Position numbers and translations under genes: made by a program
The notes under the pieces: model-generated
Seen by the model: the letters and a program-made list of their open reading frames with translations, nothing else
What the model was told of the DNA's origin: nothing
Database searches by the model: none
In this document: piece by piece, positions 28 through 31,970 of the stretch
Layout: the number at the start of each line of letters is the position of its first letter
Numbering within the stretch: position 1 is the first letter of the stretch
NCBI RefSeq assembly: GCF_001598795.1
Contig: NZ_BCZP01000011.1
Coordinates: 1-32,000, forward strand
Length of the DNA stretch: 32,000 nucleotides
Source: Delftia acidovorans NBRC 14950
Lineage (GTDB): Bacteria; Pseudomonadota; Gammaproteobacteria; Burkholderiales; Burkholderiaceae_C
Direction: 5' to 3'

Positions 28-357
28 ATGGCCCGCCAGATCATCATTGCCATTTCCGCCGACGACGAGGGCCGCGTTGCCCTGACCACCAACCTGCCCC
101 GCCCGGTGCCTGGGCGCGGCCTGAACACTGAGGACGCGGCCGCCCTGGAGCTGCTTCGCATGGCCCAGCACCTGCCCAACCTCGAAACCACCACCTACGA
201 CGCCAACCACCTGGCGCCGGATGCGGCCGAGGCCTTCGACCTGATCCGCGAGCTGATCAACCCTGATGGCTACGGCTACTCGGTCACCGCCGAAGTCGGC
301 AACCACGCACGCCGCGTGCTGCAGATCAAGGGGCAGCAGGTCGGTCTCCCGCTATGA
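28..357 (+). CDS. hypothetical phage protein (109 aa)
   Basis: The ORF is preceded by AGGAG (16-20). Its stop overlaps the next start (ATGA at 354-357). No recognisable motif. Confidence 0.5.
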   Translation: MARQIIIAISADDEGRVALTTNLPRPVPGRGLNTEDAAALELLRMAQHLPNLETTTYDANHLAPDAAEAFDLIRELINPDGYGYSVTAEVGNHARRVLQIKGQQVGLPL

Positions 358-1193
358 GCAAGAACACACCATGGCGGGCCGAGGATGACGCCTACCTGCG
401 GGCGCACTACCCCACCCAGCCCACGGCTGCCGTCGCTGCGCACCTGCAGCGCTCGGCCAGGCATGTGCAGCAGCGCGCCTATGACCTGGGTGTGAAAAAG
501 GCACCCGGCGCCAAGACCGCGCGCACCGGCCGCTGGACGGACCTCGATGACCTGCTGCAGCTGCTGTATGCCGACATGCTCAACGAGGACCTGCGGGAGC
601 TGCTGGGCATGCCCATGCGAGACATCGCCACAAGGGCCAGCCGCCTGGGCCTGCACAAGTCCCCTGCGGTGCTGACCCAGACCTACCGCGCTTCCATGCT
701 GCGCCAGGGCCAGAGGCTGGGGCAGTTCACCGCAGGGTTCAAGCCGTGGAACAAGGGGAAGCACGGATACAGCGTGGAGCAGCGAAAAAGCCATTTCAAG
801 GCCGGAAACAGGCCTCCGACCTGGGTGCCCGTGGGCACCGAGCGCTGGACCACGCCGCCACGCGCGCTGCCACATGCAGCCCGCTACCTCAAGCGCAAGG
901 TGGCCGAGCCAAACCGATGGGCGCTGGTACACCGCATCGTCTGGGAGCAGCACCACGGCCCTATTCCGGAGGGACATGCCGTCATCTTCCATGACGGCGA
1001 CACCTCAAATTTCGACATCAACAACCTCCGCTGCATCCCTCGCGCAGAGCTGTCCCGCAGCAACGGGGCCGCCGTCCCCATCGACCTTCTGCCCGTGTGG
1101 CAACTCACACGCCAGCTGGACCGCGAGATCAAGGAAATCGAGAAAACCGAGCATGACCACCACCACAACCGACACCCAGCCCACGCCGCCTGA
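354..1193 (+). CDS. HNH endonuclease (HNH_3/homing-type) with two N-terminal SANT/Myb-like HTH repeats
   Basis: C-terminal VHRIVWEQHHGPIPEGHAVIFHDGDTSNFDINNLRCIPRAE matches the phage HNH_3 pattern (H..vw...G.ip.g..v.H.dgd..nN...NL). The N-terminus has two similar W/RW-x-DD..L....Y...-...A..L.R....V..RA..LG..K units. The tail is His-rich. Confidence 0.7.
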   Translation: MSKNTPWRAEDDAYLRAHYPTQPTAAVAAHLQRSARHVQQRAYDLGVKKAPGAKTARTGRWTDLDDLLQLLYADMLNEDLRELLGMPMRDIATRASRLGLHKSPAVLTQTYRASMLRQGQRLGQFTAGFKPWNKGKHGYSVEQRKSHFKAGNRPPTWVPVGTERWTTPPRALPHAARYLKRKVAEPNRWALVHRIVWEQHHGPIPEGHAVIFHDGDTSNFDINNLRCIPRAELSRSNGAAVPIDLLPVWQLTRQLDREIKEIEKTEHDHHHNRHPAHAA

Positions 1194-1203
1194 AATCAGC
1201 GGC

Positions 1204-1506
1204 ATGGGCCAGCTGCAATCGCTGCTGCTCCAGACCATCAAGGATCTGCGCAGCGGTGCCACCACGCCGCAGATCGCCCGCGCCATCACCGACATCGGCC
1301 AGACCCTGGTGGCCAGCTCCCGCGCAGAAATCGAATTTGCGCGGATCACCAAGGCCTCGCGCGTGGGATTTCTTGACTCTCCAGCGACGCAAGCTGCATT
1401 GCCCAGACCCACGGCAGACGGGTCCGGCCACACCACACCACTGCCGCCGGGCCAGCACTGGCAGGGCCTGGTCCACCGCACCAGCGATGAGGAGCCCAAC
1501 CGATGA
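1204..1506 (+). CDS. hypothetical phage protein (alternative start ATG 1153)
   Basis: In-frame ATGs at 1153 and 1204 lie within the 874..1506 ORF. The stop overlaps the next start (ATGA at 1503-1506). The start is uncertain. Confidence 0.4.
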   Translation: MGQLQSLLLQTIKDLRSGATTPQIARAITDIGQTLVASSRAEIEFARITKASRVGFLDSPATQAALPRPTADGSGHTTPLPPGQHWQGLVHRTSDEEPNR

Positions 1507-1742
1507 ATCAGCATCAGCCCAAAGGCTCAATGTGTCAGACCTGCTGCAGCGGCAGCCGCGCCTGCGCCGCGCTGCCCTTCGCATCCATGCCCGTCATCAA
1601 GACCTATCCGGACGGCGTGAAAGCCGTGAAATGCAGCGCATATCAGGCAACCACCAGCGCACAGGCCCGCCGCTGCCTCAGCTGCGGAGCACCTGCACCC
1701 ACCCATCTCGCCGAAGGCGAGGGACTGCCCTGCGGCCACTAA
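1503..1742 (+). CDS. small Cys-rich protein (79 aa), possible zinc ribbon
   Basis: CQTCC near the N-terminus and CLSC near the C-terminus, plus further Cys residues. Translationally coupled to the upstream gene. Confidence 0.45.
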   Translation: MNQHQPKGSMCQTCCSGSRACAALPFASMPVIKTYPDGVKAVKCSAYQATTSAQARRCLSCGAPAPTHLAEGEGLPCGH

Positions 1743-1766
1743 CCGCAATCACTCAAGAGGATTTTC

Positions 1767-2051
1767 ATGAACACATACCAACTCCTGCTCGCTCAGCGAG
1801 ATGCGCTCGACGCGCGCATCGCTACCGAATTCAACCGACTGCGCCAGGACTCCATCGACACGGTCAAGCAGCTGTGCACCATGTACAGCATCAGCGCTGC
1901 CGATGTGTTCTCCGCAGCGAAGCCCAAGGCCAACGTGGGCCAGCCGAAGTACCGGGACCCCGCCACCGGCGCGACCTGGACCGGCCGGGGCAAGCCGCCG
2001 AACTGGATCAACGGCAAGGACCGCGCGCCCTTCCTGATCGCCACCCAGTAG
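1767..2051 (+). CDS. H-NS family nucleoid-associated DNA-binding protein (phage-borne paralogue)
   Basis: N-terminal coiled-coil-like segment. The C-terminal YRDPATGATWTGRGKPPNWI matches the H-NS DNA-binding motif (TWxGRGxxPxW). Confidence 0.8.
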   Translation: MNTYQLLLAQRDALDARIATEFNRLRQDSIDTVKQLCTMYSISAADVFSAAKPKANVGQPKYRDPATGATWTGRGKPPNWINGKDRAPFLIATQ

Positions 2052-2101
2052 AGGCATGAGCACAGCGCATGGGCGCTGTCCTGATACCTCCCCCTCCCCT
2101 G

Positions 2102-2138
2102 AAGCCACCCGGCCCCGTGCCGCGAGTGGCTTTTTTTT
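2102..2138 (+). terminator. Rho-independent terminator candidate after the H-NS-like gene
   Basis: A GC stem (AAGCCAC...GTGGCTT) is followed by a T8 run (2131-2138). A second hairpin, ACAGCGC-atgg-GCGCTGT, lies at 2062-2079. Confidence 0.55.
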
Positions 2139-2159
2139 GGCCCAAAGGAACCCCACCCG

Positions 2160-4151
2160 ATGAAGCGCGACAACTTCACCATGCCGCTGGCCTTCCCCGG
2201 CGAACTCATCATCGACAACTTTGCCGGCGGCGGCGGCACGTCCACTGGGCTGGAGTCCGCATTCGGCCGGCCCGTGGACATCGCCATCAACCACGACCCC
2301 GAGGCGCTGGCCATGCACGCCGCGAACCACCCGCACACGCTGCACCTGCGCGAATCGGTCTGGGACGTGAACCCGATCCAGGTCACCGGCAATCAGCCCG
2401 TGGCGCTCGTCTGGCTGTCGCCGGACTGCAAGCACTTCAGCAAGGCCAAGGGCGGCACGCCCGTATCGAAGCACATCCGGGGCCTGGCGTGGGTGGGCAT
2501 GCGCTGGGTTGCCATGTGCAAGCCCCGCGTGCTCATGCTGGAGAACGTGGAGGAGTTCCAGACCTGGGGTCCGATCCTGGTGGGCCCCGATGGCCTGGCC
2601 CGGCCGGACCCCGCGCGCCGGGGCAAGACCTTCAAATCGTTCGTGCGCCAGCTGCGCATGCACGGCTACCAGGTGGACTGGCGCGAACTGCGCGCCAGCG
2701 ACCACGGCACGCCCACGATCCGCAAGCGCCTGTTCTTGGTGGCCCGCCGCGACGGTCTGCCCATCGTCTGGCCCGAGCAGACACATGCCGAGCCCACGGA
2801 TCGCCGCGTCATCGCGGGCAAGCTGGCCGCGCACCGCACGGCCGCCGAGTGCATCGACTTCGACCTGCATGCCGAGAGCGTGTTCGGCCGCAAACGCCCG
2901 CTGGTGGACAACACCATGCGCCGTGTCGCAAAGGGCCTGTGGCGCCATGTGCTGACCAGTGCCAGCCCGTTCATCGTTGGCGCTGGCGGCCCGGTCTATT
3001 CGGGCCGGCCTGCAGCGACAGACCGCCCCATCGGCACCGTGACCACGCAGAACCACCGCGCCGTGGCCCAGCCCGTGATCGCGCCCTACCTGAACGAACA
3101 CGCGAACGCCAGCAACCAGCGCACCATGCCCGCCGACGCACCGCTGCGCACGGTCTGCGCGCAGGTGAAGGGTGGCCACTTCTCAGTGGTGGCGCCCACG
3201 CTGGCCCCGCTGCGCGGCACGACTGAGCAGCACCTGCTCGGCCATGCCGTGGATGCACCGCTGTCCACGGTTGCCGCGTCCGGCACGCACCACGCGCTGG
3301 TGGGCGCCAACCTGGTCACCATCGGCTACGGCAAGCGCTGGAGCCATGGCGCGCGCAGCCTGGAAGTGCCGCTCAACACGGTCACGGCTAGCGGCGGCAC
3401 CAGCGCGCTGGCTGCCGTACACCTCACCCACCTCACCCACCACGGCGAGCGCACCGGCAACGATCCGCGCGAGCCCCTGCGCACCGTCACCGGCGCCAAC
3501 CGGGGTGAGCAGGCCATGGTGGCCGCGTGCTTGGAGCAGGCCAACGGCGGGTTCTACGACGGCGACGGCCGCAGCGCGGCGGACCCCATGTCCACGGTGA
3601 CTTCCAGCGGCACGCAGCAGCGGCTCATCACCGCCTACCTCGTGAAGTACTACAGCGAGGGCGGCCAGTACAGCGCCTGCAGCGAGCCGATGCACACCGT
3701 GCCCACGAAGGCGCGCATGGGCCTGGTGCAGACCTGCCAGGTGCCGGCCGCAACGCTGGCGCCCGAGCATGCCGAGCGGGCCCGGCTCTGCGCCGAGCTG
3801 CTTCACAAGCACCTGCCCGAGCACTTCCCAGACCCCGCCGAGCTGGTCCTGATGTGGCACGCGGGCCAGTGGTGGGTGCTCGTCGACATCACGCTGCGCA
3901 TGCTCAAGCCACGCGAGCTGTTCCGGGCCCAGGGCTTCCCGCGCGACTACCACTTCGAGCGCGTGCCCGACCCGGCCCTGCTGTTTCGAGGTGGCAAGCA
4001 AGCCGCCGACCCGCGTGATGTGCCGCTCATCGACCTGAGCACTACCGCCCAGGTCCGCATGTGCGGCAACAGCGTCTGCCCACCTCTGGCCGAGGCCCTG
4101 GCCCGCGCCAACTTCGCCCACGAGGCGCTGATTTACGGAGTCGCCGCTTGA
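2160..4151 (+). CDS. DNA (cytosine-5)-methyltransferase, orphan, with an expanded repetitive target-recognition region
   Basis: Motif I IDNFAGGGGTSTGL, motif IV SPDCKHFSKAKG (catalytic Cys), motif VI ENVEEF, motif VIII TIRKRLFLVARR, motif IX RELFRAQGFPRDY, motif X GNSVCPPLAEAL. About 385 aa lie between motifs VIII and IX. Confidence 0.9.
   Translation: MKRDNFTMPLAFPGELIIDNFAGGGGTSTGLESAFGRPVDIAINHDPEALAMHAANHPHTLHLRESVWDVNPIQVTGNQPVALVWLSPDCKHFSKAKGGTPVSKHIRGLAWVGMRWVAMCKPRVLMLENVEEFQTWGPILVGPDGLARPDPARRGKTFKSFVRQLRMHGYQVDWRELRASDHGTPTIRKRLFLVARRDGLPIVWPEQTHAEPTDRRVIAGKLAAHRTAAECIDFDLHAESVFGRKRPLVDNTMRRVAKGLWRHVLTSASPFIVGAGGPVYSGRPAATDRPIGTVTTQNHRAVAQPVIAPYLNEHANASNQRTMPADAPLRTVCAQVKGGHFSVVAPTLAPLRGTTEQHLLGHAVDAPLSTVAASGTHHALVGANLVTIGYGKRWSHGARSLEVPLNTVTASGGTSALAAVHLTHLTHHGERTGNDPREPLRTVTGANRGEQAMVAACLEQANGGFYDGDGRSAADPMSTVTSSGTQQRLITAYLVKYYSEGGQYSACSEPMHTVPTKARMGLVQTCQVPAATLAPEHAERARLCAELLHKHLPEHFPDPAELVLMWHAGQWWVLVDITLRMLKPRELFRAQGFPRDYHFERVPDPALLFRGGKQAADPRDVPLIDLSTTAQVRMCGNSVCPPLAEALARANFAHEALIYGVAA
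3021..3794 (+). repeat. Seven tandem ~34-39-codon modules inside the methyltransferase variable region
   Basis: The P-x-x-T-V core recurs at aa 290, 328, 367, 404, 439, 476 and 510 (PIGTV, PLRTV, PLSTV, PLNTV, PLRTV, PMSTV, PMHTV). Each is followed by a small-residue turn and a hydrophobic strand. Confidence 0.8.
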
Positions 4152-4245
4152 CCCCGACCCCACCCCAGACCTGCGAGCTGCTGCAGCGCGCAGGCCACGT
4201 CATCAACACCACTGCCACCTGGTGGCGCATCCCCAAGGAAGCCTC

Positions 4246-4821
4246 ATGACAGCAACGAAGCAAACGCCCGAAATGATCCTGGCCAGCTCCCCCGAGGCCG
4301 CAAGCATTCAGACCGTCACCGGCTGGGTCGCGCGCGACGGCCGCTTCTGGGGTGACGACGAGCGCATGGCGCGCTACTGCGGATCGACGCACAGCATTTG
4401 CGAAAAGAACCCTGCACACGGCCCTGTCGAGAACCGCTCCTACTGCGAGGCCTGCTACGCCGAAAGGAAGGATGCCCAGTGGCAGGCCCTGCCGAAGGCG
4501 CCTGTTTCTGAGGAGCTGATGCCGCTGTGCGTCTTCGACAGCGATCGCTACTTCTTCGACCTCGATGACCTGCGCGACTGGCTGAAGGAGCACGAACTAA
4601 ATCCAGAAGATGTTCGCCTCGTGCAATGCGAGCCAGTGCACGCGCAGCCCATCGACCCCAATGAGCACTTCGCGGACGACTTGCCAGAAGACGGCGAGGT
4701 CCCGGATGAGCTGCGCGAGGCATTCGAGGCCTTGAACGCAGCGATTGAGAAGTGCAACCCCCTGGGCTGGCGCGCCGCAAACAAGCTGGGTGTTCTGATC
4801 CCCGCCGACTTCCTCAACTGA
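4246..4821 (+). CDS. hypothetical phage protein with Cys cluster
   Basis: ATG 4246 is preceded by AAGGAAG. Contains YCGSTHSIC...SYCEACY and an acidic C-terminal half. Confidence 0.55.
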   Translation: MTATKQTPEMILASSPEAASIQTVTGWVARDGRFWGDDERMARYCGSTHSICEKNPAHGPVENRSYCEACYAERKDAQWQALPKAPVSEELMPLCVFDSDRYFFDLDDLRDWLKEHELNPEDVRLVQCEPVHAQPIDPNEHFADDLPEDGEVPDELREAFEALNAAIEKCNPLGWRAANKLGVLIPADFLN

Positions 4822-4845
4822 TCCCCGCGAACACAGGAGCAACAC

Positions 4846-5892
4846 ATGACTCACATCCTGATCCCGCGCGAACCCAGCACTGCCCTGCTTCGCCCCTTCA
4901 TCGGCTGCAACACCCAGGAACTGCACGAGGCCTGGGCCGCAATGGTCCGCATTGCCGAGGTCCAGCATGCCCGCGCCGGCAGCCAGTGCCTGCAGCAGAT
5001 TGCGGAGCCCGCAACCCTGGCCGGCAGCACCATCGAGCAGTACGCCCGCATGTTCAACGCAGCCTGTGAGGCTCTGGGCCAAATCAGCGACTGCCTGGGC
5101 ATCAACTCGGACATCAACCCAGGCGCCGAACCCATCATCGCCGCCATTGAGCAGCTGCGCGCTGGCGGCACTCATCCTGTGCTGGATGACCGCTGGAAGG
5201 CCCGCATGCTCGACGGCCGCGCGCCAGAGCGCGACGAGATGGGCCTGGGCGATCACCCCGATCTGCCTTGGCTGGACGAAGGCATGATGCCGCGCAGCTT
5301 CTTCGCCGCGCTAGGTCTGGAGCTGGCCCACACGATGGCCGAGGACCAGCTGGACGCCGATGCTCTCGAAACCATGAGCGAGGCCGTCAACTGGACCGAC
5401 TGGCAGCCGACCTCACCCCAAGGCGTCGGCTGGAAGCTGGTTTCCATCTTCGACACCGAGGACGGGCCGGCGGCGTGGTGGCTGCGCGAGTTACCCGAAG
5501 CCGAAGACGGCACCACGACCATTAGCAAGCTGCAGGCCGAGGCCGGGCGACTGCAGAAGGCAATCAACGAGCTGGCCGGCATGTTCCATGACCAGATCGT
5601 CGCTCAGCAAGCCGCCTACATCGAATGGCAGCATGGCGCGGGCGCGGAGGCTGCGATGGGATGGATCGAGAACGGTCTCTGCGGCCCTGGCCACATTCCT
5701 GACGAGGACGCCCCCTATGGCAAGGAGGCGCAGGCTTGGTTCGACGCCAACAAGCACGAACCTTTCCCTGCATGCCCGTGCGGACGGCCCTCAAACATTC
5801 TCTGGATGGGCAAAGGCTTCTGCTGCAACGCGCACTACGACGAGGCATTCAAGGCCCACCAGACCGCCAAGGGGGAGCACGGCAATGGCTGA
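4846..5892 (+). CDS. hypothetical phage protein (348 aa) with C-terminal Cys/His cluster
   Basis: Long ORF preceded by AGGAG. The C-terminus has CPCGRPSNILWMGKGFCCNAHYDE. No family recognised. Confidence 0.6.
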   Translation: MTHILIPREPSTALLRPFIGCNTQELHEAWAAMVRIAEVQHARAGSQCLQQIAEPATLAGSTIEQYARMFNAACEALGQISDCLGINSDINPGAEPIIAAIEQLRAGGTHPVLDDRWKARMLDGRAPERDEMGLGDHPDLPWLDEGMMPRSFFAALGLELAHTMAEDQLDADALETMSEAVNWTDWQPTSPQGVGWKLVSIFDTEDGPAAWWLRELPEAEDGTTTISKLQAEAGRLQKAINELAGMFHDQIVAQQAAYIEWQHGAGAEAAMGWIENGLCGPGHIPDEDAPYGKEAQAWFDANKHEPFPACPCGRPSNILWMGKGFCCNAHYDEAFKAHQTAKGEHGNG

Positions 5893-6130
5893 CGCGCACG
5901 ACGAATTCCTCAAGGCTTTCGATCGGCTGCTGGAAGAGCACGGGATCGCCGAGGCCATGTCCATCGCAACTGGAACCTTCGTGTCGCTGGTTGTCGGCTT
6001 TGCCAAGCACAACGGCCATGCCGACAACCTGCCAATCACTATCAAGGGCACGGACCGCAACAGCGGGCACCGCCGCGACATCACGATCCACCCCGCGAAA
6101 TCGCGCCCCGCGCCGCACAAAGAGAGCTGA
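5885..6130 (+). CDS. hypothetical phage protein (81 aa)
   Basis: The internal ATG at 5885 overlaps the upstream stop by 8 nt. It lies in the 5588..6130 reading frame. Confidence 0.45.
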   Translation: MADAHDEFLKAFDRLLEEHGIAEAMSIATGTFVSLVVGFAKHNGHADNLPITIKGTDRNSGHRRDITIHPAKSRPAPHKES

Positions 6131-6131
6131 C

Positions 6132-6686
6132 ATGCAAACAGCAACACCCCAGCAGGTCCGCCTGCTGCAGCACACGCTCGGCCTGTGCGAGCACCAACGC
6201 AGCTCCTACCGCAATCACTTTGTGGCTGGGCCTGGCCACCACGACATGCCGGACCTCGAATCGTTGGAGAGCCTAGGCCTCATGGCCCGCGTGCACGCGC
6301 CGGCATTTTGCGAGGTGAGCGACATCGTGTTCGTGACCACCACGGCCGGCGCCGCCCTGGCGCTGGAGCACCTGCCCGAGCCGCCGCCACCTGCGAAGCA
6401 GACGCAGTACCGCCAATGGCTGAATGCGGACACGGGCTGCACGTTCTGCGAGTGGTTGTGCGGAAGCCGGCTACCGAAGTTCGAGACACGCGGCTACGTC
6501 CTCAACGGAACCCAGGAATACCGCATGTACCGCATGGTCTGGGACGGCGACTGGGACAGCTACCGCGACGTGCAGGGCCAGTGGGCCACCACGAAGAAGG
6601 AAGCAAAGGCCAGCTACAAGGCGGCGCTAAAGGCGCACCAGCAAGCACGGCGCACAGCAAGCAAACAGGAGAGCCACCATGCGTGA
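6132..6686 (+). CDS. hypothetical phage protein (184 aa)
   Basis: ATG 6132 starts 2 nt after the previous stop. It lies in the 5736..6686 frame. The C-terminus is basic. Confidence 0.5.
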   Translation: MQTATPQQVRLLQHTLGLCEHQRSSYRNHFVAGPGHHDMPDLESLESLGLMARVHAPAFCEVSDIVFVTTTAGAALALEHLPEPPPPAKQTQYRQWLNADTGCTFCEWLCGSRLPKFETRGYVLNGTQEYRMYRMVWDGDWDSYRDVQGQWATTKKEAKASYKAALKAHQQARRTASKQESHHA

Positions 6687-7332
6687 ACGTCCCATTCTCT
6701 TCAGCGGCCCGATGGTCCGCGCCCTGCTGGCGGGCACGAAGACGCAAACGCGCCGCGTCGTGAAGCCACAACCCGACTCCACACACAGGGGCTTCCCCTA
6801 CTGGCACGTCGGCGGCTATCGTGCATCGTGGTGCCGCAGCGCGGCGGATGGCGGTCCGCTGGAGCCCTCGAACCCGCTACTCTGCCCCTATGGCCAGCCC
6901 GGCGACCGGCTGTGGGTGCGCGAGACCTTCGGCCACTTCGAGCGCAACGAGAACTTCAAGCCCGGCTGCGATGTGTTTTACAGGGCCGATGGCGACTGCT
7001 TGGAACTGGAGCCCTGGCGCCCCAGCATTCACATTCCCCGCTGGGCCAGCCGCATCCTGCTGGAGATCACCAGTGTGCGCATCGAGCGCCTGCAGGACAT
7101 CAGCGACGAGGATGCCCGCGCCGAGGGCATGGAGTGCATGGCAGGTGACCCGGAATGCGGCTACCGCAACTACCTGGACAAGACCGACCAAGACTGGACG
7201 CTGAGCCCGCGCGAGTCGTTCCAGAGCCTCTGGGAATCGATCAACGGCCCGACCAGCTGGAGCGCTAACCCTTGGGTGTGGCCGCTGGACCTCAGGCGCA
7301 TCCTGAACCAACAGCAAGGACAACAACAATGA
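6679..7332 (+). CDS. phage protein, ASCH/PUA-like fold suspected
   Basis: The N-terminal RPILFSGPMVRALLAGTKTQTRRV resembles the ASCH N-terminal strand-turn motif common in prophages. Overlaps both neighbours (8 nt upstream, ATGA downstream). Confidence 0.55.
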   Translation: MRERPILFSGPMVRALLAGTKTQTRRVVKPQPDSTHRGFPYWHVGGYRASWCRSAADGGPLEPSNPLLCPYGQPGDRLWVRETFGHFERNENFKPGCDVFYRADGDCLELEPWRPSIHIPRWASRILLEITSVRIERLQDISDEDARAEGMECMAGDPECGYRNYLDKTDQDWTLSPRESFQSLWESINGPTSWSANPWVWPLDLRRILNQQQGQQQ

Positions 7333-7583
7333 GCAACACAGACACCCTGAACCTGCGCGAAGCTGCAGACATCCTCAAGATTCACGTCAAAACCGCAGAA
7401 GACATGGCCCGCGAGGGGAAAATACCGGCCGCAAAAATCGGCCGTGCCTATGTCTTCATGCGCCGCGACGTGGTGCGCTTCGCCGAGCAGGCAATCAACA
7501 AGCAAACCGCCGACCGCATACTGAAGCGCTCACCAAAGCGCGTTCGCAAGGTCAGTGCCCCGCAGGTTCGCGTAGCGCATTAG
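7329..7583 (+). CDS. excisionase-like / MerR-type helix-turn-helix DNA-binding protein
   Basis: LNLREAADILKIHVKTAEDMAREGKIPAAKIGRAYVFMRRDV fits the excisionase-family HTH pattern. It is positioned next to the integrase. Its 3' end overlaps the integrase 3' end by 54 nt. Confidence 0.65.
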   Translation: MSNTDTLNLREAADILKIHVKTAEDMAREGKIPAAKIGRAYVFMRRDVVRFAEQAINKQTADRILKRSPKRVRKVSAPQVRVAH

Positions 7584-8648
7584 CATGCGCTGCGTCTTGT
7601 GGCCTGTGATCTTCATGATCTGCGTCTCGCTCAGCGTGGTCCGCTCAAACAGGCGGCTGGTCGCTTCGTGTCGCAGATCATGAAATCGCAGGCCCTTGGC
7701 CCCGGCCTGCTCCATGATCCCCGCATACAGGTTCGACAGGTAGTCAGTGGTGGCATGCAGATCTTCATCACGCTTCGACCACCACGGGAAAATCAACGAC
7801 TGCGGGCTGGGCAGATCCAGGCCCTGCAGGTAGCCCTCCAGCACTCCAACTGCCACCGAGGACAGCGGCACTTGCCGCTTGTCACCGTTCTTGGTCTTGT
7901 CCAAAAACACCGTTCGCCGTGGCAGGTCCACCTGCCCGAGCGTCAGCGTGTACATCTCGCGCATCCGCATTGCCGTCTCCACGGCCAGGACGAACAGGCA
8001 TCGCAACGCTGCCTGGTTCTCCAGTTTCAGCGGCCGCTGCCTTCGCGCGAGAACTCCCCCATCAATCACAGCCAACACGGCCTCATACTCGCCGCGCTCC
8101 AGGCGCCGGTCACGCTCCACATCGGTGCGAGCACCACCTTCTGCAAGCGCGGCATCCGTCTTTGTGTACTGGGCATATCCGTCTGGCAGCGTGCGTAGCG
8201 GATGGTCCGGCAGGGACAGCAGCCCCTTTCGCATGCCCCAGTCCGTGCACCTGGCCAGTGCCCCTACCTTGGCACGGATGGTGGCCGGCGCCAGGTTCTC
8301 CACCCTCTTCATTTCCGAAATCCAGCCATCGACCCAAGCCGAATTGATCTCGCTCAGCGGGTAGTGGCCACGGCTGTCCAGGATGGTGCCGAGGGCACTT
8401 CGATCTTTCGGCGACGGATGCGCATCGCGCTCGTACTCGCGCACCAGCTCCTTGATTGTCAGCACCACCTCAGCCTTTTGGTGCTCGGCGGGCACGATGC
8501 CCCGTGACAGCAGGGCATCCAGCCTGGCTGCATATTCATCGCCCTCGGCCTCGGTTGCGAAGGTCAAATAGAGCGGTTTGTCCAGCACGCCCCGGCGCTT
8601 GAACGTGTACTGCCAGGTGCCATTCGGGAACTGTTTCTTGCCTGCCAA
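7530..8648 (-). CDS. int: tyrosine recombinase / phage integrase
   Basis: C-terminal catalytic signature ...RFHDLRHEATSRL...GHKTQRMLMRYANL (R..H-x-x-R..Y). Adjacent to the tRNA 3' end. Confidence 0.9.
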   Translation of the reverse strand: MAGKKQFPNGTWQYTFKRRGVLDKPLYLTFATEAEGDEYAARLDALLSRGIVPAEHQKAEVVLTIKELVREYERDAHPSPKDRSALGTILDSRGHYPLSEINSAWVDGWISEMKRVENLAPATIRAKVGALARCTDWGMRKGLLSLPDHPLRTLPDGYAQYTKTDAALAEGGARTDVERDRRLERGEYEAVLAVIDGGVLARRQRPLKLENQAALRCLFVLAVETAMRMREMYTLTLGQVDLPRRTVFLDKTKNGDKRQVPLSSVAVGVLEGYLQGLDLPSPQSLIFPWWSKRDEDLHATTDYLSNLYAGIMEQAGAKGLRFHDLRHEATSRLFERTTLSETQIMKITGHKTQRMLMRYANLRGTDLANALW

Positions 8649-8816: not shown

Positions 8817-8892
8817 TGGTGGGTGCTAACGGGGTCGAACCGCTGACCTACGCCTTGTAAGGGCGCCGCTCTACCAACTGAGCTAAGCACCC
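8817..8892 (-). tRNA. tRNA-Val (anticodon TAC)
   Basis: Manual cloverleaf: acceptor GGGTGCT/AGCACCC, D arm GCTC-AGTTGGTA-GAGC, anticodon arm GCGCC-CTTACAA-GGCGT, T arm AGCGG-TTCGACC-CCGTT, discriminator A and an encoded CCA. Length 76 nt. Confidence 0.93.
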
Positions 8893-28374: not shown

Positions 28375-28941
28375 CTATTTTTTGTCGATGATCTTCAGGG
28401 GAATGGCGCCGTAGGCCAGCGCACGCACGTCGGCGGAGCAGTCGGCGCCGTTGGAGTACGTGCACTCGATGACTTCGAGCTCTCCGGTCAGGTTGTCGCA
28501 GCTGCCCACATCGATGGCATTGGACAGATGGGTCAGGTCCTGCTTGCCGACCTTGAGGACATAGAAGCGGGCGATCGTGCTGCCGGCCGACTTGTCGTTG
28601 CCCTGCTTGCGGTAGCGGATGCCGGCCACCAGTTCCTCCATGGTCTGGTTGGAGGAGTTGTTCACCTGGATCTGGGGCGAGCACACGGAGCGGCGGTTCA
28701 TGCCGTCGTTGGCCAGGATCACCAGGGCCTGGGGAATGGATACATAGATCTGCCCCTTGGGCCGGCGCCTCTTGACCAGTTCCTGCAGCGGCTCTTCGAT
28801 CACATGGTTGTTGCTGCCCAGCCGGTGCCCCACGTCCTGGGCCCTGGCGCCCGTCGCGGTGGCGGCCAGGCCGCACGCCATCAGCGTCCACAGCAGCGCG
28901 GCACGCAGGGCGCCGCTCGTCATCATCGGGAAATCGTTCAT
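28375..28941 (-). CDS. secreted/periplasmic orphan protein with 4 Cys (188 aa)
   Basis: ATG 28941 overlaps the thioesterase stop (ATGA). Signal peptide MMTSGALRAALLWTLMACGLAATATGARAQ, with a possible lipobox LMAC. The mature part has 4 Cys. Visibly less GC-rich than its neighbours. Confidence 0.6.
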   Translation of the reverse strand: MNDFPMMTSGALRAALLWTLMACGLAATATGARAQDVGHRLGSNNHVIEEPLQELVKRRRPKGQIYVSIPQALVILANDGMNRRSVCSPQIQVNNSSNQTMEELVAGIRYRKQGNDKSAGSTIARFYVLKVGKQDLTHLSNAIDVGSCDNLTGELEVIECTYSNGADCSADVRALAYGAIPLKIIDKK

Positions 28942-29720
28942 GCAGGCACCAGGCAGGCCGCTGCGCCCAGGCGCAGGCGGTCGATGTCGGCGGACAGAGT
29001 GTCCAGGAAGTCGGGAGCCGACTGGAGGAAGAAATGCCCGCCATCGAAGCAATGCAGCCGCGAGCCACCCGTGGTCATGGCGGACCATCCGGCCATCGCC
29101 AGGGGCGTGGCGAGCGCATCGGCCCGTCCCGCATAGGCCACCACGGGGCAATCCAGGGGATGCCCCGGCCCCGGCAGCGGCTGGGCCGCCAGTGCGAAGT
29201 CGGCCCGCAGCACGGGCAGCGCCATGGTCCAGAAACCGGGGTCGGCATCCAGCTCGGGCGGGATGCCGCCATAGGAGCGGACCAGCCGCTGGAAGGCGCC
29301 ATCATCCAGGCCAGCCGTATCGGCCACGGCCGGGCGACCGGGGGGCGCGCTGGCGGCCACCAGCAGCCCGCACGGTGGCGGCAGGCCGCGTTCGGCAAGT
29401 TGCCGGACCAGGGCAAACGCAAGGCGCGCGCCCAGGCTGCAGCCAAAGAGCGCGTAAGGACGGTCCAGCCAGGGCGCCACGGCATCGGCAAGGCCGGCTA
29501 GCATGGCGTCCAGGCTGACCAGCGGCCTTTCCGACAGCCGCGTTTCGTGGCCCGGGTACTGCAGCGGCGCCACGGCCACGCCTGGCAGATGGCGGCGCCA
29601 GCCCAGATAGGCCGAGGCACCGCCACCGGCGAAGGGCAGGCACAGCAGGCGCACGCCTGCATCCGCCGCACCTGCACCGAAGGCCAGCCAGGGGCAGCGG
29701 GAGGGCTGCATCGATGTCAT
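28938..29720 (-). CDS. type II thioesterase (NRPS/PKS editing alpha/beta hydrolase)
   Basis: LLCLPFAGGGAS, nucleophile elbow GCSLG (GxSxG), and the C-terminal GGHFFL catalytic His region. Confidence 0.85.
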   Translation of the reverse strand: MTSMQPSRCPWLAFGAGAADAGVRLLCLPFAGGGASAYLGWRRHLPGVAVAPLQYPGHETRLSERPLVSLDAMLAGLADAVAPWLDRPYALFGCSLGARLAFALVRQLAERGLPPPCGLLVAASAPPGRPAVADTAGLDDGAFQRLVRSYGGIPPELDADPGFWTMALPVLRADFALAAQPLPGPGHPLDCPVVAYAGRADALATPLAMAGWSAMTTGGSRLHCFDGGHFFLQSAPDFLDTLSADIDRLRLGAAACLVPA

Positions 29721-29740
29721 CGCAACCGGGCCGTGCCTGC

Positions 29741-30319
29741 TCAGGACGCGCCGGCCTTGCCGCCGCCGACGTTCTTCTGGACGAAGGCCTTGCCCTCTTC
29801 CACCTGTTGCTTGAGCTTGCTGCTCATGTCCGAGACCTTGACATCCAGGAAGGTGCCGCCCGTCTCGAAATGCTGCATGAACAGCTTGCCGACCGCGTAG
29901 GTGGTCGCGCCCGCCAAAGTGGACTGGGCCAGCACGCCGGCGGCGATGCCCACGCCCGGGATGAACTTCAGCAGGCTGGCCAGCGGTGCCGTCACCACCA
30001 GCGGCAGGTAGCCCCCCAGCAACGCGCCCAGCAGCTTCTTGCCGGTCTCGTCCGACAGCGAATGGCCGTACAGGCGGCCCACCTTGCGCAGCAGGCTCAG
30101 CTGCACGCCGGTGAGGGCGATCAGGTCCAGGCCCGGAACCGGCAGGATGCCGATGCCCATGGCCGTGATCACGTGGTTCTTGATGGTGTGCAGGGCCTCG
30201 TTTTGCCGCTCCTGCGGGGTCAGGGGCGCATCGGCTGTTTCAGCAGAGGCCACGGCAGCATCGGCAATGGCCGTGTCGGTGGCAGGGCTCACGGTACTTT
30301 CGGCTTTTTCCACGCTCAT
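29741..30319 (-). CDS. DUF697-like protein (192 aa)
   Basis: ATG 30319 is preceded by GGAG. IKNHVITAMGIGILPVPGLDLIALTGVQLSLLRKVGRLYG...KFIPGVGIAAGVLAQSTLAGATTYAVGKLF fits the DUF697 pattern as I recall it. Confidence 0.6.
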   Translation of the reverse strand: MSVEKAESTVSPATDTAIADAAVASAETADAPLTPQERQNEALHTIKNHVITAMGIGILPVPGLDLIALTGVQLSLLRKVGRLYGHSLSDETGKKLLGALLGGYLPLVVTAPLASLLKFIPGVGIAAGVLAQSTLAGATTYAVGKLFMQHFETGGTFLDVKVSDMSSKLKQQVEEGKAFVQKNVGGGKAGAS

Positions 30320-30405
30320 GGGAAATCTCCAGTTGGGGAACAAGTGGCCCGGCGCACGGCGCCGGGAAGGCGGCACAGGAAGCGGAGTTCGCCCAGTGCC
30401 ACGGC

Positions 30406-30421
30406 GGAACACAAATGTTCC
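30406..30421. promoter_or_regulatory. Perfect palindrome GGAACA-N4-TGTTCC in the operon leader (operator candidate)
   Basis: Read directly from the sequence. It lies ~+14..+29 relative to the candidate promoter. Confidence 0.3.
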
Positions 30422-30441
30422 AAAGTGTCACCGACACCGGA

Positions 30442-30470
30442 ATCATTCGTGAAACACAGGTAACAGTCAA
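30442..30470 (-). promoter_or_regulatory. Sigma70-type promoter candidate for the accessory operon
   Basis: On the minus strand: TTGACT (30470-30465), a 17-nt spacer, then AATGAT (30447-30442). Confidence 0.3.
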
Positions 30471-30542
30471 CCCTGCGCGCCGCGCCCTGGCCGCGGGCGC
30501 AGGAGGGGGTCAGGGGACTGCGAACGGGGTGCATTCGGGGCC

Positions 30543-31970
30543 TCAGCCTTCGGCTTTTCCGTAGAGGCGCTCGGCCGGGATGCCCAGATCCTCGCAGGCG
30601 GCCAGCAGGGAGCGCACGGAGCGCATGGCGGCCGACTCCGGGTCGAACTCGATGCTGGTGATAAACGACAGCCACGGCTCCAGCCCCAGTGCATAGACGA
30701 AGACCTGCTCGCACTGCAGCATGCGCAGCAGGCCCATGGCGCGGCGGTAGTCCGAGCCGTCGAGCCGGCGCGACTGGTCGCGTGCGCGGTCCAGCGGTGT
30801 CGGCAGCAGCGGACCGTACAGCCAGCTCAGGGGCGCGCCCTCGCACTCCATGCCGATGAACAGGGCCTGCAGCGAACCCACCACGGGGCGCAGGTGCTCG
30901 TACAGGCGAGGCTCCAGATTGTTGGAGTCCGCCGCGAACAGCAGGCGGCTGCCGGCGGCATCCACCAGCCAGGCGGCCTTGGTGCGAATGTCCAGATCGG
31001 CATGCTCGCCCAGGAAAGGCAGGGCGGTGACCGTCAGGTCGCCCTCGCTGAAGACCTCCAGCGGGCCGATTTCCTGCACATCGGCAAAGCCCGCCGCCTG
31101 CAGTGCGAGCTTGAGCGAGGGGTCGGCAAGACTGCCTCCCCCGCCGGCTGGCACCAGAACCCGACCGATGCGCGAGCGCAGGGCCAGCAAGGTCTCCAGC
31201 TGCACATGGTCCTGGTGGTTGTGCGTCAGCGCCACGCAGTCGATGCGCTGCGGCAGGTCGGCCAGCGTGAAGCGCGGTGTCTGGCCCGCGCTGCCACCGG
31301 CAGGCACCAGGGGATCGATCAGCACGCTGCGCCCACCTGGCGTCTCGACCAGCACGCAGGCATGGCCGAAATACCGCCAGCGCGCGCTGCCCACCGGCGC
31401 CGTGTCCGCCAGGTCCCCACCGCGCCGGGCCGGTGGCGTGCCGGTCAGCAAAGCGTGGAAGCGGTCGGCCCGCGCGCCCTCCAGCCCGAGCGACTCGGCG
31501 ATGGCATCGAAGGGGCGCGGTGCGTGCCGCAGCGCTGCCAGCATGTCGTTGGCGGGGCTGGCATACGGAATCTGCAGGGCGACCGCCCCGTCACGTTCGA
31601 GCTGCGGCGTGCCCAGGGCAAAGGGCCGCACATCGCCGCCGCGCATCACCAGCGTGCTCTGAGCCGAGGTGTCATACAGCGGGCTGCGGTAGAGCAGCGC
31701 CTCGATCAGGCGCAGGTCCGGTGCGCCGGTCAGCGAGTACACGAGCTCCGCATAGCCGCGCACCGAATCGGGAAGGCGCGGATACAGCTGCGCCATCGAA
31801 TGCCCATCGGCCTGGGTCTTGAGCAACTCCCAGCACTGCCCCAGGTCGGCAGCAAACGACAACAGCCCGGCATGGCGCTGGCGCGTCTCGTCCAGCAGGG
31901 CCTGGATGTCCCCGCGGCGCTCGGCCGGCCAGTCCATGAAGGGGCCGCCGCGCATGGCGGCATTGGCCAC
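30543..31970 (-). CDS. MBL-fold metallo-enzyme with a ~200-aa N-terminal extra domain; possibly a CmlA-like diiron beta-hydroxylase. The frame stays open to the window edge, so the 5' end may be truncated.
   Basis: HxHxDH motif (LTHNHQDH) in the C-terminal half, preceded by FGHACVLVE. No stop occurs between 31970 and 32000 in frame. Confidence 0.75.
   Translation of the reverse strand: MANAAMRGGPFMDWPAERRGDIQALLDETRQRHAGLLSFAADLGQCWELLKTQADGHSMAQLYPRLPDSVRGYAELVYSLTGAPDLRLIEALLYRSPLYDTSAQSTLVMRGGDVRPFALGTPQLERDGAVALQIPYASPANDMLAALRHAPRPFDAIAESLGLEGARADRFHALLTGTPPARRGGDLADTAPVGSARWRYFGHACVLVETPGGRSVLIDPLVPAGGSAGQTPRFTLADLPQRIDCVALTHNHQDHVQLETLLALRSRIGRVLVPAGGGGSLADPSLKLALQAAGFADVQEIGPLEVFSEGDLTVTALPFLGEHADLDIRTKAAWLVDAAGSRLLFAADSNNLEPRLYEHLRPVVGSLQALFIGMECEGAPLSWLYGPLLPTPLDRARDQSRRLDGSDYRRAMGLLRMLQCEQVFVYALGLEPWLSFITSIEFDPESAAMRSVRSLLAACEDLGIPAERLYGKAEG

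Follow-up and report, generated by a model that had tools for sequence, protein, structure and literature searches.

The multispecific C5-cytosine DNA methyltransferases (MTases) of Bacillus phages each combine two or three sequence specificities and protect DNA against several restriction systems. In the monospecific enzyme M.HhaI, by comparison, the target-recognizing domain (TRD) is laid out as a first recognition loop, a Thr-Leu dipeptide, and a second recognition loop. A 2025 review cites arrayed TRDs from Bacillus phages only, and multispecific C5-MTases are discussed for these phages only in the literature that we searched. Another group of prophage C5-MTases, about 700 amino acids (aa) long and widespread, includes enzymes of relaxed specificity, among them those of the Aeromonas ARM81 phages such as ARM81mr_p29 (PMC5537653). 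Here, we analyze a homologue of the latter enzymes, encoded in a 32,000-nucleotide (nt) stretch of Delftia acidovorans NBRC 14950 (contig NZ_BCZP01000011.1, hereafter the window). The gene, at positions 2160..4151 of the forward strand, encodes a 663-aa orphan prophage C5-MTase of the ‘SPDC’ phage family (phrog_116). We propose, with a probability of roughly 0.6, that this enzyme carries an array of seven TRD-like cassettes and acts as a broad anti-restriction methylase. The statement that it is a broad anti-restriction C5-MTase, taken alone, is held with greater confidence than the full proposal, whereas the stricter notion that each cassette would specify one target is held with less.

The array is marked by a short core, P[LMI]xTV, for which a pattern search of the protein returns exactly seven matches, at aa 290, 328, 367, 404, 439, 476, and 510 (nt 3027–3701), with spacings between successive cores of 38, 39, 37, 35, 37, and 34 residues. 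In 5000 shuffles of the residues of the protein, the same pattern occurred 0.04 times on average and never more than twice. Seven cores are thus far beyond chance, and the positions and the 34–39-residue period listed in a first-pass annotation of this DNA are exact. That annotation had cast the core in an acidic form, [D/E]-x-P, which proved less general: the stricter pattern [DE].P[LMI].TV[TACP] finds four of the seven cores, because R, E, or A precede the Pro in the other three. As had been noted, each core is followed in the alignment by a turn of small residues (Gly/Ser) and then by a hydrophobic stretch. Pairwise identity among the seven modules is 12–44%, and PHROG 23072 matches the enzyme in three separate stretches, which appears to be a sign of internal repetition. 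The repeat can also be seen in the DNA, where CCGCTGNNNACGGT, with up to two mismatches, recurs in register at six of the seven cores (3141, 3258, 3369, 3474, 3585, and 3687), but this is a mere reflection of the conserved peptide. No long DNA repeats were found, and the repetition is therefore ancient and at the protein level; recent tandem duplication of the DNA was rejected on the same ground.

The array lies within a C5-MTase core whose motifs can be followed on either side of it. The PF00145 profile (C-5 cytosine DNA methylase) covers aa 17–213 only (E=1e-25) because the long insert splits the core into two halves, and TIGR00675 scores 81 bits, below its cut-off of 100.65, because the N-terminal half alone aligns; PHROG 116 (‘DNA methyltransferase’) spans aa 15–656 (E=2e-94). 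Motif I (DNFAGGGG, aa 19–26, at 2214..2237; this and all motifs and cassettes below are on the forward strand), which binds S-adenosylmethionine, is invariant in 67 homologues. Motif VI (LENVEEF, aa 127–133; 2538..2558) aligns with the ENV of the SPR enzyme and of 3g7u, the MTase of prophage CP-933R. Beyond the array, RMLKPRELFRAQGFP aligns to motif IX of both of these enzymes; motif IX as delimited here (LRMLKPRELFRAQGFPRDY, aa 579–597; 3894..3950) corresponds to residues 317–337 of 3g7u and 377–392 of SPR. In motif X (CGNSVCPPLA; 4062..4091), N637, S638, V639, and P641 are invariant among homologues. A Foldseek comparison against the PDB matches the core to DNMT1, MET1, 3g7u, M.HaeIII, and M.HhaI, with a probability of 1.0 for DNMT1, MET1, M.HaeIII, and M.HhaI, a result that confirms the generic C5-MTase core only. 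From the end of motif VIII (aa 195) to the start of motif IX (aa 579), the distance is about 385 aa. The first-pass annotation had described an intact ten-motif core with a gap of this size; the C5-MTase motifs and the gap are indeed present, but motifs IV and VIII are noncanonical. Motif IV (SPDCKHFS, aa 87–94; 2418..2441) retains the catalytic Cys90, but an Asp inserted after the Pro sits inside the canonical Pro-Cys dipeptide, and motif VIII (TIRKRLFLVA, aa 186–195; 2715..2744), which aligns with PTIRTRYFF of 3g7u, reads T-I-R-K-R where Q-x-R-x-R would be canonical. The two deviations occur throughout the family; for motif IV, a pattern of this kind was found in 60 diverse representatives, and all 60 have SPDC[KTR]. 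Homologues are active in vivo (PMC3925955).

The inserted Asp raises the question of whether the SPDC motif reflects an altered chemistry, in which a group other than methyl is moved to C5, for example carboxymethyl from carboxy-S-adenosylmethionine (Cx-SAM). The solved structure that ranks second by sequence, 8yf3 (E=1e-3), is a C5-carboxymethyltransferase that uses Cx-SAM, and the restriction-protection assays carried out on homologues cannot separate methyl from other C5 adducts. However, the match to 8yf3 is weak and confined to the generic core, a cofactor-synthesis gene (e.g., CmoA-like) is not seen among the neighboring genes, and the family has been annotated, and its homologues assayed, as 5-methylcytosine (m5C) MTases. 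We give this alternative hardly any credence.

The extent of the repeating unit was examined among relatives. A word-indexed protein search with the enzyme gave at least 8000 hits, of which the best 120 (643–972 aa; from Delftia, Comamonas, Variovorax, Acidovorax, Burkholderia, Pandoraea, Cupriavidus, and Pseudomonas) were used for module counts with a hidden Markov model (HMM) built from the seven query modules. The 1023 modules of these relatives were grouped by average-linkage clustering, single linkage at 60% identity having chained nearly all of them together. The modules inspected were mosaics, with breakpoints in the hydrophobic strand. The loop that precedes a core is linked to the core plus following loop with an adjusted mutual information of 0.836 (50 distinct pairs), as against 0.583 (94 distinct pairs) between the core and the loop after it, and the unit therefore holds both putative recognition loops. 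These values displace the unit of core, turn, and strand that had been drawn from the single sequence: what recombines is instead a loop-PxxTV-loop segment between hydrophobic strands, and the natural cassette appears to be [variable loop]-[D/E-x-P-x-x-T-V]-[Gly/Ser loop], with a hydrophobic β-strand on either side. This layout resembles the canonical TRD anatomy of C5-MTases. In the later cassette frame, which is anchored on the Pro of the core, the Delftia enzyme still has seven cassettes, spanning 31–41 aa each.

Cassette 1 (aa 276–309, GGPVYSGRPAATDRPIGTVTTQNHRAVAQPVIAP; 2985..3086) is of a variable type and is absent in many relatives. Cassette 2 (aa 310–350, YLNEHANASNQRTMPADAPLRTVCAQVKGGHF...; 3087..3209) is of the widespread type 5, which also occurs in Aeromonas ARM81mr_p29 and in gp73 of Pseudomonas phage Dolphis. 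Cassette 3 (aa 351–388, LRGTTEQHLLGHAVDAPLSTVAASGTHHAL...; 3210..3323) is of type 0, and cassette 4 (aa 389–425, GYGKRWSHGARSLEVPLNTVTASGGTSAL...; 3324..3434), of type 4, has a leading loop shortened by deletion. Cassette 5 (aa 426–461, THHGERTGNDPREPLRTVTGANRGEQAM...; 3435..3542) is of type 2. Cassette 6 (aa 462–497, NGGFYDGDGRSAADPMSTVTSSGTQQRL...; 3543..3650) is of type 3, as in 111 of the 120 close relatives, all 120 of which carry the corresponding module type B. The array ends with the universal terminal cassette 7 (aa 498–528, YSEGGQYSACSEPMHTVPTKARMGLV...; 3651..3743), whose signature (…KYYSxGGQ…EPMHTVxTKxRMGLV) is kept even in two-cassette Bacillus forms. This last cassette is probably structural, and probably represents the constitutive PxxTV element found ahead of motif IX in C5-MTases at large.

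Near-identical proteins reveal how such arrays change. Whole cassettes account for all the differences between the Delftia enzyme (P0001) and its homologues P0002, P0005, and P0013, which elsewhere align as near-identical sequences. A 45-aa type-11 cassette of P0002 (GEREGQQPRTQDIEAPLGTVVAGGIKSALVAAHLVDMGHGEGPAG) is missing from the Delftia enzyme, and P0005 and P0013 have 86 aa, equal to two cassettes, at the same deletion site. The 36-aa cassette 5 is cleanly absent from P0013, which carries types 11 and 7 but not type 2, and in P0005 cassette 1 is replaced by one of a different type. The Delftia enzyme is thus a one-cassette deletion derivative relative to a near-identical 708-aa homologue. 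The junction between IGYG and KRW (3324–3341, aa 389–394) is the scar of that event; compared with relatives, cassette 4 is missing ∼6 aa of its leading loop here (GYG-KRWSHGARSLEV vs GHGEGPAGGKRFSHGIRSLEV). The 659-aa homologue P0100 has the same module order as the Delftia enzyme. A second prophage of the same Delftia genome encodes a paralogous MTase, P0011 (L009 8001–10115; assembly GCA_000741825.1, scaffold KN046795.1), at a distance of about 1.36 Mb from the locus in the window. This paralogue is 704 aa long and has eight cassettes; the EHANASNQR cassette (cassette 2, type 5) is missing from its array, which has two others, of types 11 and 12 (GYGEREGQ and NTTGHPG).

The same pattern holds on a larger scale. 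The 120 close homologues share about 22 module types in 41 different module orders; the order in the Delftia enzyme is E-D-F-G-A-B-C, of which the last three types occur in 120/120 relatives and the first two in most, so that the ends of the array are fixed and its middle is combinatorial. Across 389 family members, at least 57 cassette types have five or more members, and several are common to Betaproteobacteria and Firmicutes. Cassettes of the same type are 44–62% identical across phyla, vs 18% between types within one protein. By these comparisons, the cassettes behave in evolution as independent units.

Between the Delftia enzyme and its paralogue P0011, synonymous divergence (dS) is about 0.32, and the ratio of nonsynonymous to synonymous substitution rates (dN/dS) is 0.06 in the core and 0.12 in the array. 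The array is under purifying selection, and a disordered neutral linker was rejected on the value of 0.12. The same ratio bears on the idea that the array has just one active TRD, or a few, and that the other cassettes are inactive pseudo-TRDs or spacers left from past recombination. The truncated leading loop of cassette 4 and the universal, probably structural terminal cassette would fit such a view, and pseudo-domains were reportedly encountered in some Bacillus phage enzymes in work of the Trautner laboratory. However, an array dN/dS of 0.12 at this dS, together with the conservation of types across phyla, indicates that most cassettes are under selection, and homologues protect many unrelated sites (see below). 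Pseudo-TRDs are, in our judgment, an improbable explanation for the greater part of the array.

Functional information comes from characterized relatives. By tblastn, the enzymes Pyei1_p05 (of Paracoccus phage vB_PyeM_Pyei1) and ARM81mr_p29, which come from the work of Dziewit, Radlinska, and co-workers, are 40–42% identical to the Delftia enzyme over 96–97% of its length. Pyei1_p05 is itself ∼69% identical to JCM7686_0772 and JCM7686_2655 from prophages of Paracoccus aminophilus, and modification by enzymes of this kind makes DNA resistant to ‘a wide variety’ of endonucleases sensitive to m5C (PMC6536676). JCM7686_0772 and JCM7686_2655 gave partial protection against AluI (AGCT), BglI, Bme1390I (CCNGG), BsuRI (GGCC), CaiI, and EcoO109I (PMC3925955, Additional file 8), as well as against EcoRII (CCWGG), Hin6I (GCGC), HpaII and MspI (both CCGG), HpyF10VI, NciI, PauI, PvuII, TaiI (ACGT), and XhoI (PMC3925955). 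Cleavage was complete with Bsh1236I (CGCG), Bsp143I (GATC), BspLI, Eco130I, FspBI, Hin1II, HinfI, MbiI, MluI, and NcoI (PMC3925955). The protected sites lack a single degenerate motif, and other C-containing sites are left untouched, a pattern that a sum of several specificities would explain no worse than a single relaxed one. The three reports (PMC6536676, PMC3925955, PMC5537653) speak of relaxed specificity, and tandem TRDs or cassettes appear in none of them.

A single relaxed or degenerate specificity would be expected if the repeats formed one composite repetitive DNA-binding domain, such as a stack or clamp of β-hairpins, in which a change in repeat number would adjust affinity, processivity, or degeneracy and add no discrete targets. 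The relaxed character ascribed to the homologues and the partial nature of the protection agree with this model. So do the small size of the unit, which at ∼36 aa is short for an autonomous domain, the invariance of the terminal cassettes, and the appearance of the units, which look like β-hairpins (TVT, Gly turn, hydrophobic strand) and might be stacked in one sheet. On the other hand, AGCT, GGCC, CCGG, CCWGG, GCGC, ACGT, and CTCGAG have no degenerate motif in common, and CGCG, GATC, and CCATGG are untouched. In addition, the cassette types are discrete, given the identities across phyla and between types, and cassettes are individually gained, lost, and replaced in otherwise near-identical proteins; structural repeats rarely retain type-specific loop sequences to this degree. 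We regard the composite domain as unlikely, but as the main rival of the proposed array.

Against an array of TRD-like cassettes with several specificities stand the following observations. Protection by the Paracoccus enzymes was partial only, and it was explained in the original study by relaxed specificity (‘at least one C in CC’) and not by a sum of discrete specificities (PMC3925955). At the end of the array, two or three cassettes do not vary among relatives and may be structural rather than specificity-determining, and cassette 4, with its truncated leading loop, may be impaired. HMMs of the modules gave no significant match to the TRDs of SPR, rho11s, or H2 (E>0.01), and a profile of 59 cassette types found no solved C5-MTase among all PDB sequences. 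Structure prediction, which the first-pass annotation had named as a check, was uninformative over the array: AlphaFold2 modeled the core of the Delftia enzyme with confidence from a 67-sequence alignment, but aa 269–528 had a predicted local distance difference test score (pLDDT) of 21–32. For the two-cassette Bacillus homologue P0296 (78 sequences), the core was again confident and the array below a pLDDT of 50; neither model gives a fold that supports independent TRDs or that sets them apart from a single domain. Weighed together with the tandem TRD-like units, the independence of the cassettes, and the protection that tested homologues provide against many enzymes, these points leave the proposed TRD array at the probability given above; what did not survive of the interpretation as first drawn are its unit boundaries and the unusual breadth that it assigned to seven modules.

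Seven modules are in fact at the low end among the 120 close relatives, in which we counted 7 modules in 14 proteins, 8 in 46, 9 in 46, 10 in 11, and 11 in 3, making 8–9 the commonest numbers. When the array by itself (aa 285–545) was the query, phmmer retrieved 1632 clusters at E≤1e-3 and at least 729 at E≤1e-10 from 1.84 billion representatives at 50% identity. The family spans Proteobacteria, Firmicutes, and phages of Actinobacteria, and 38 complete representatives had 4–11 modules with a mode of 7. A tblastn search of 50,697 phage genomes returned 403 records, with hosts that include Gordonia, Mycobacterium, Pseudomonas, Arthrobacter, Vibrio, Burkholderia, Bacillus, Klebsiella, and Escherichia. 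Among individual phage enzymes, the phi105-type enzyme has 3 modules, gp73 of Pseudomonas phage Dolphis has 4, p29 of Aeromonas phiARM81mr has 5, and p05 of Paracoccus Pyei1 has 8; in a Firmicute branch, a ladder of lengths from 431 to 684 aa corresponds to 2–9 modules. With 7–11 modules in close relatives and 2–11 cassettes in the wider family, the multi-module state is the norm. The first-pass annotation had allowed that such a form might be the ordinary and already characterized state of the family, and this is largely what was found. With its SPDC motif IV and its PHROG 116 match, the Delftia enzyme is an ordinary member of a very large family of phage MTases.

The genomic setting is that of a prophage. 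The genes from 28 to 7583 are all on the forward strand, and all have phage-family matches. Directly upstream of the MTase gene lies a gene for a phage protein with an H-NS C-terminal domain (1767..2051, forward strand; PF00816, E=3e-13). The MTase gene belongs to a rightward early operon whose last gene encodes an excisionase-like HTH_17 protein (7272..7583, forward strand; PF12728, E=1.5e-13), followed by the tyrosine integrase gene of the prophage (7530..8648, reverse strand; PF00589, E=6e-21). A tRNA-Val(TAC) gene that adjoins the integrase (8817..8892, reverse strand) is the likely attachment site and prophage boundary, and beyond it are host genes for UvrC, an HMGL-like lyase, a CoA-transferase, EarP, MatE, and others. 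The opposite attachment site falls beyond the window. The MTase gene is thus in the early arm of the prophage, about 3.4 kb from int. The arrangement of early operon, xis, int, and tRNA-Val matches that of Pyei1. The second prophage has the same synteny, with an H-NS-like gene, the MTase gene, further genes, an HTH_17 gene, and the integrase gene. An H-NS C-terminal-domain gene precedes the MTase gene in both prophages (L009 7135–7449 in the second).

Profile matches of the neighboring genes revealed no candidate restriction endonuclease beside the MTase gene, in agreement with the earlier description of the enzyme as an orphan; the neighbors are phage-type, and a nuclease partner was not found. 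The forward-strand phage genes include one for an HNH_3 endonuclease (354–1193; 279 aa), but a Type II restriction-modification pair was rejected, the HNH_3 protein being phage-type (phrog_1891) and encoded three called genes upstream of the MTase gene. No HNH_3 gene is present within 8 kb upstream of the paralogous MTase gene of the second prophage. The N-terminal 100 aa of the HNH_3 protein also match phrog_323 (‘transcriptional regulator, D5-like’), and several PHROGs of no known function are also represented among the genes from 28 to 7583. At the far end of the window, in the host region (28938–31970), are genes for a thioesterase and for a CmlA-like diiron β-hydroxylase with a metallo-β-lactamase fold, both typical of the tailoring enzymes of a non-ribosomal peptide cluster.

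A mechanism consistent with an array of TRD-like cassettes can be outlined. Individual cassettes, singly or in small groups, would read different short DNA sequences, and the MTase would therefore methylate several unrelated targets. The gene would presumably be expressed only on induction of the prophage, after which the replicating phage DNA would gain resistance to many host restriction enzymes. Recombination inside the conserved strands and cores would reshuffle the cassette repertoire.

By itself, the Delftia gene adds little, as it belongs to a common family of prophage anti-restriction methylases; the larger interest lies in the family. We tentatively suggest, at somewhat less than even odds, that the SPDC family constitutes a second and much larger class of truly multispecific C5-MTases, distinct in sequence from the SPR group, in which each of dozens of cassette types would recognize its own short target and phages across Proteobacteria, Firmicutes, and Actinobacteria would build arrays of 2–11 cassettes combinatorially, by recombination in the conserved inter-cassette strands. 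Were this the case, the family would amount to a natural, readable code for C5-MTase specificity, and the use of many TRDs by a single catalytic core could be addressed structurally. If each cassette had its own target, m5C motifs would become predictable from sequence for thousands of prophages, a modification that is poorly seen by single-molecule real-time sequencing, and designer multispecific methylases could be built. The natural single-cassette variants (P0001, P0002, P0005, and P0013) and the two paralogues of one genome offer ready-made experiments for the assignment of targets. A tandem TRD or cassette array in the SPDC family was not described in the literature that we searched, which did not extend to the Trautner EMBO J papers or to Dziewit & Radlinska 2016, and it may be the combinatorial build of these arrays, seen across the whole family, that is under-described.

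The Delftia enzyme can thus be set against three groups of known C5-MTases. With the monospecific enzymes M.HhaI, M.HaeIII, and 3g7u, it shares the catalytic fold and the order of the motifs. The region between motifs VIII and IX differs: in the monospecific enzymes, it holds a single loop-T[LIV]-loop TRD and spans roughly 90–140 aa (an estimate from the 3g7u alignment and general knowledge of M.HhaI), whereas in the Delftia enzyme it holds seven cassettes over ∼385 aa. Its relatives Pyei1_p05 and ARM81mr_p29, from the group of relaxed-specificity prophage enzymes of about 550–700 aa, are closer. They have the SPDC motif IV and a PxxTV cassette array (8 and 5 cassettes, respectively), and, as in Delftia, their genes are orphans in the early or replication regions of prophages, near the integrase. 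Some cassette types, such as EHANASNQR...PLRT[IV]CAQVKGGHF, are common to the Delftia enzyme and the group of these tested relatives, although the set and number of cassettes differ from those of the Paracoccus and Aeromonas enzymes.

The third group comprises the multispecific enzymes of SPR, phi3T, rho11s, H2, and SPbeta, along with M.BssHII, in which one core likewise carries contiguous units of ∼40 aa, each with a Thr-[Leu/Ile/Val]. As with the Delftia enzyme, the Bacillus phage enzymes are orphans of temperate phages, and relatives differ by the gain, loss, or exchange of units. In M.SPRI, M.Rho11sI, and M.H2I, the cores of the tandem units read SPT[IL]T or TTLT. In BLASTP, M.SPRI aligns with the Delftia enzyme over motifs IV–VIII alone (26% identity, E=1e-4), and the C-terminal regions of SPR and the phi105-type enzyme gave no alignment, despite a likeness by eye ([DE]P..TV.T.DR.G). 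The core signature is SPT[IL]T in the Bacillus enzymes and P-x-x-T-V in the SPDC family, motif IV reads PC in the former and PDC in the latter, and three SPT[IL]T-type cores are visible in the Bacillus sequences compared with 2–11 cassettes in the SPDC family. The independence of the units has been demonstrated experimentally for the Bacillus enzymes only. The parallel with Bacillus phages drawn in the first-pass annotation therefore extends to architecture and to unit gain, loss, and exchange, but not to detectable similarity with the TRDs of SPR, rho11s, and H2. The resemblance to the SPR group is therefore architectural and functional, and we place the Delftia enzyme outside that group, alongside its relatives from Paracoccus and Aeromonas prophages.

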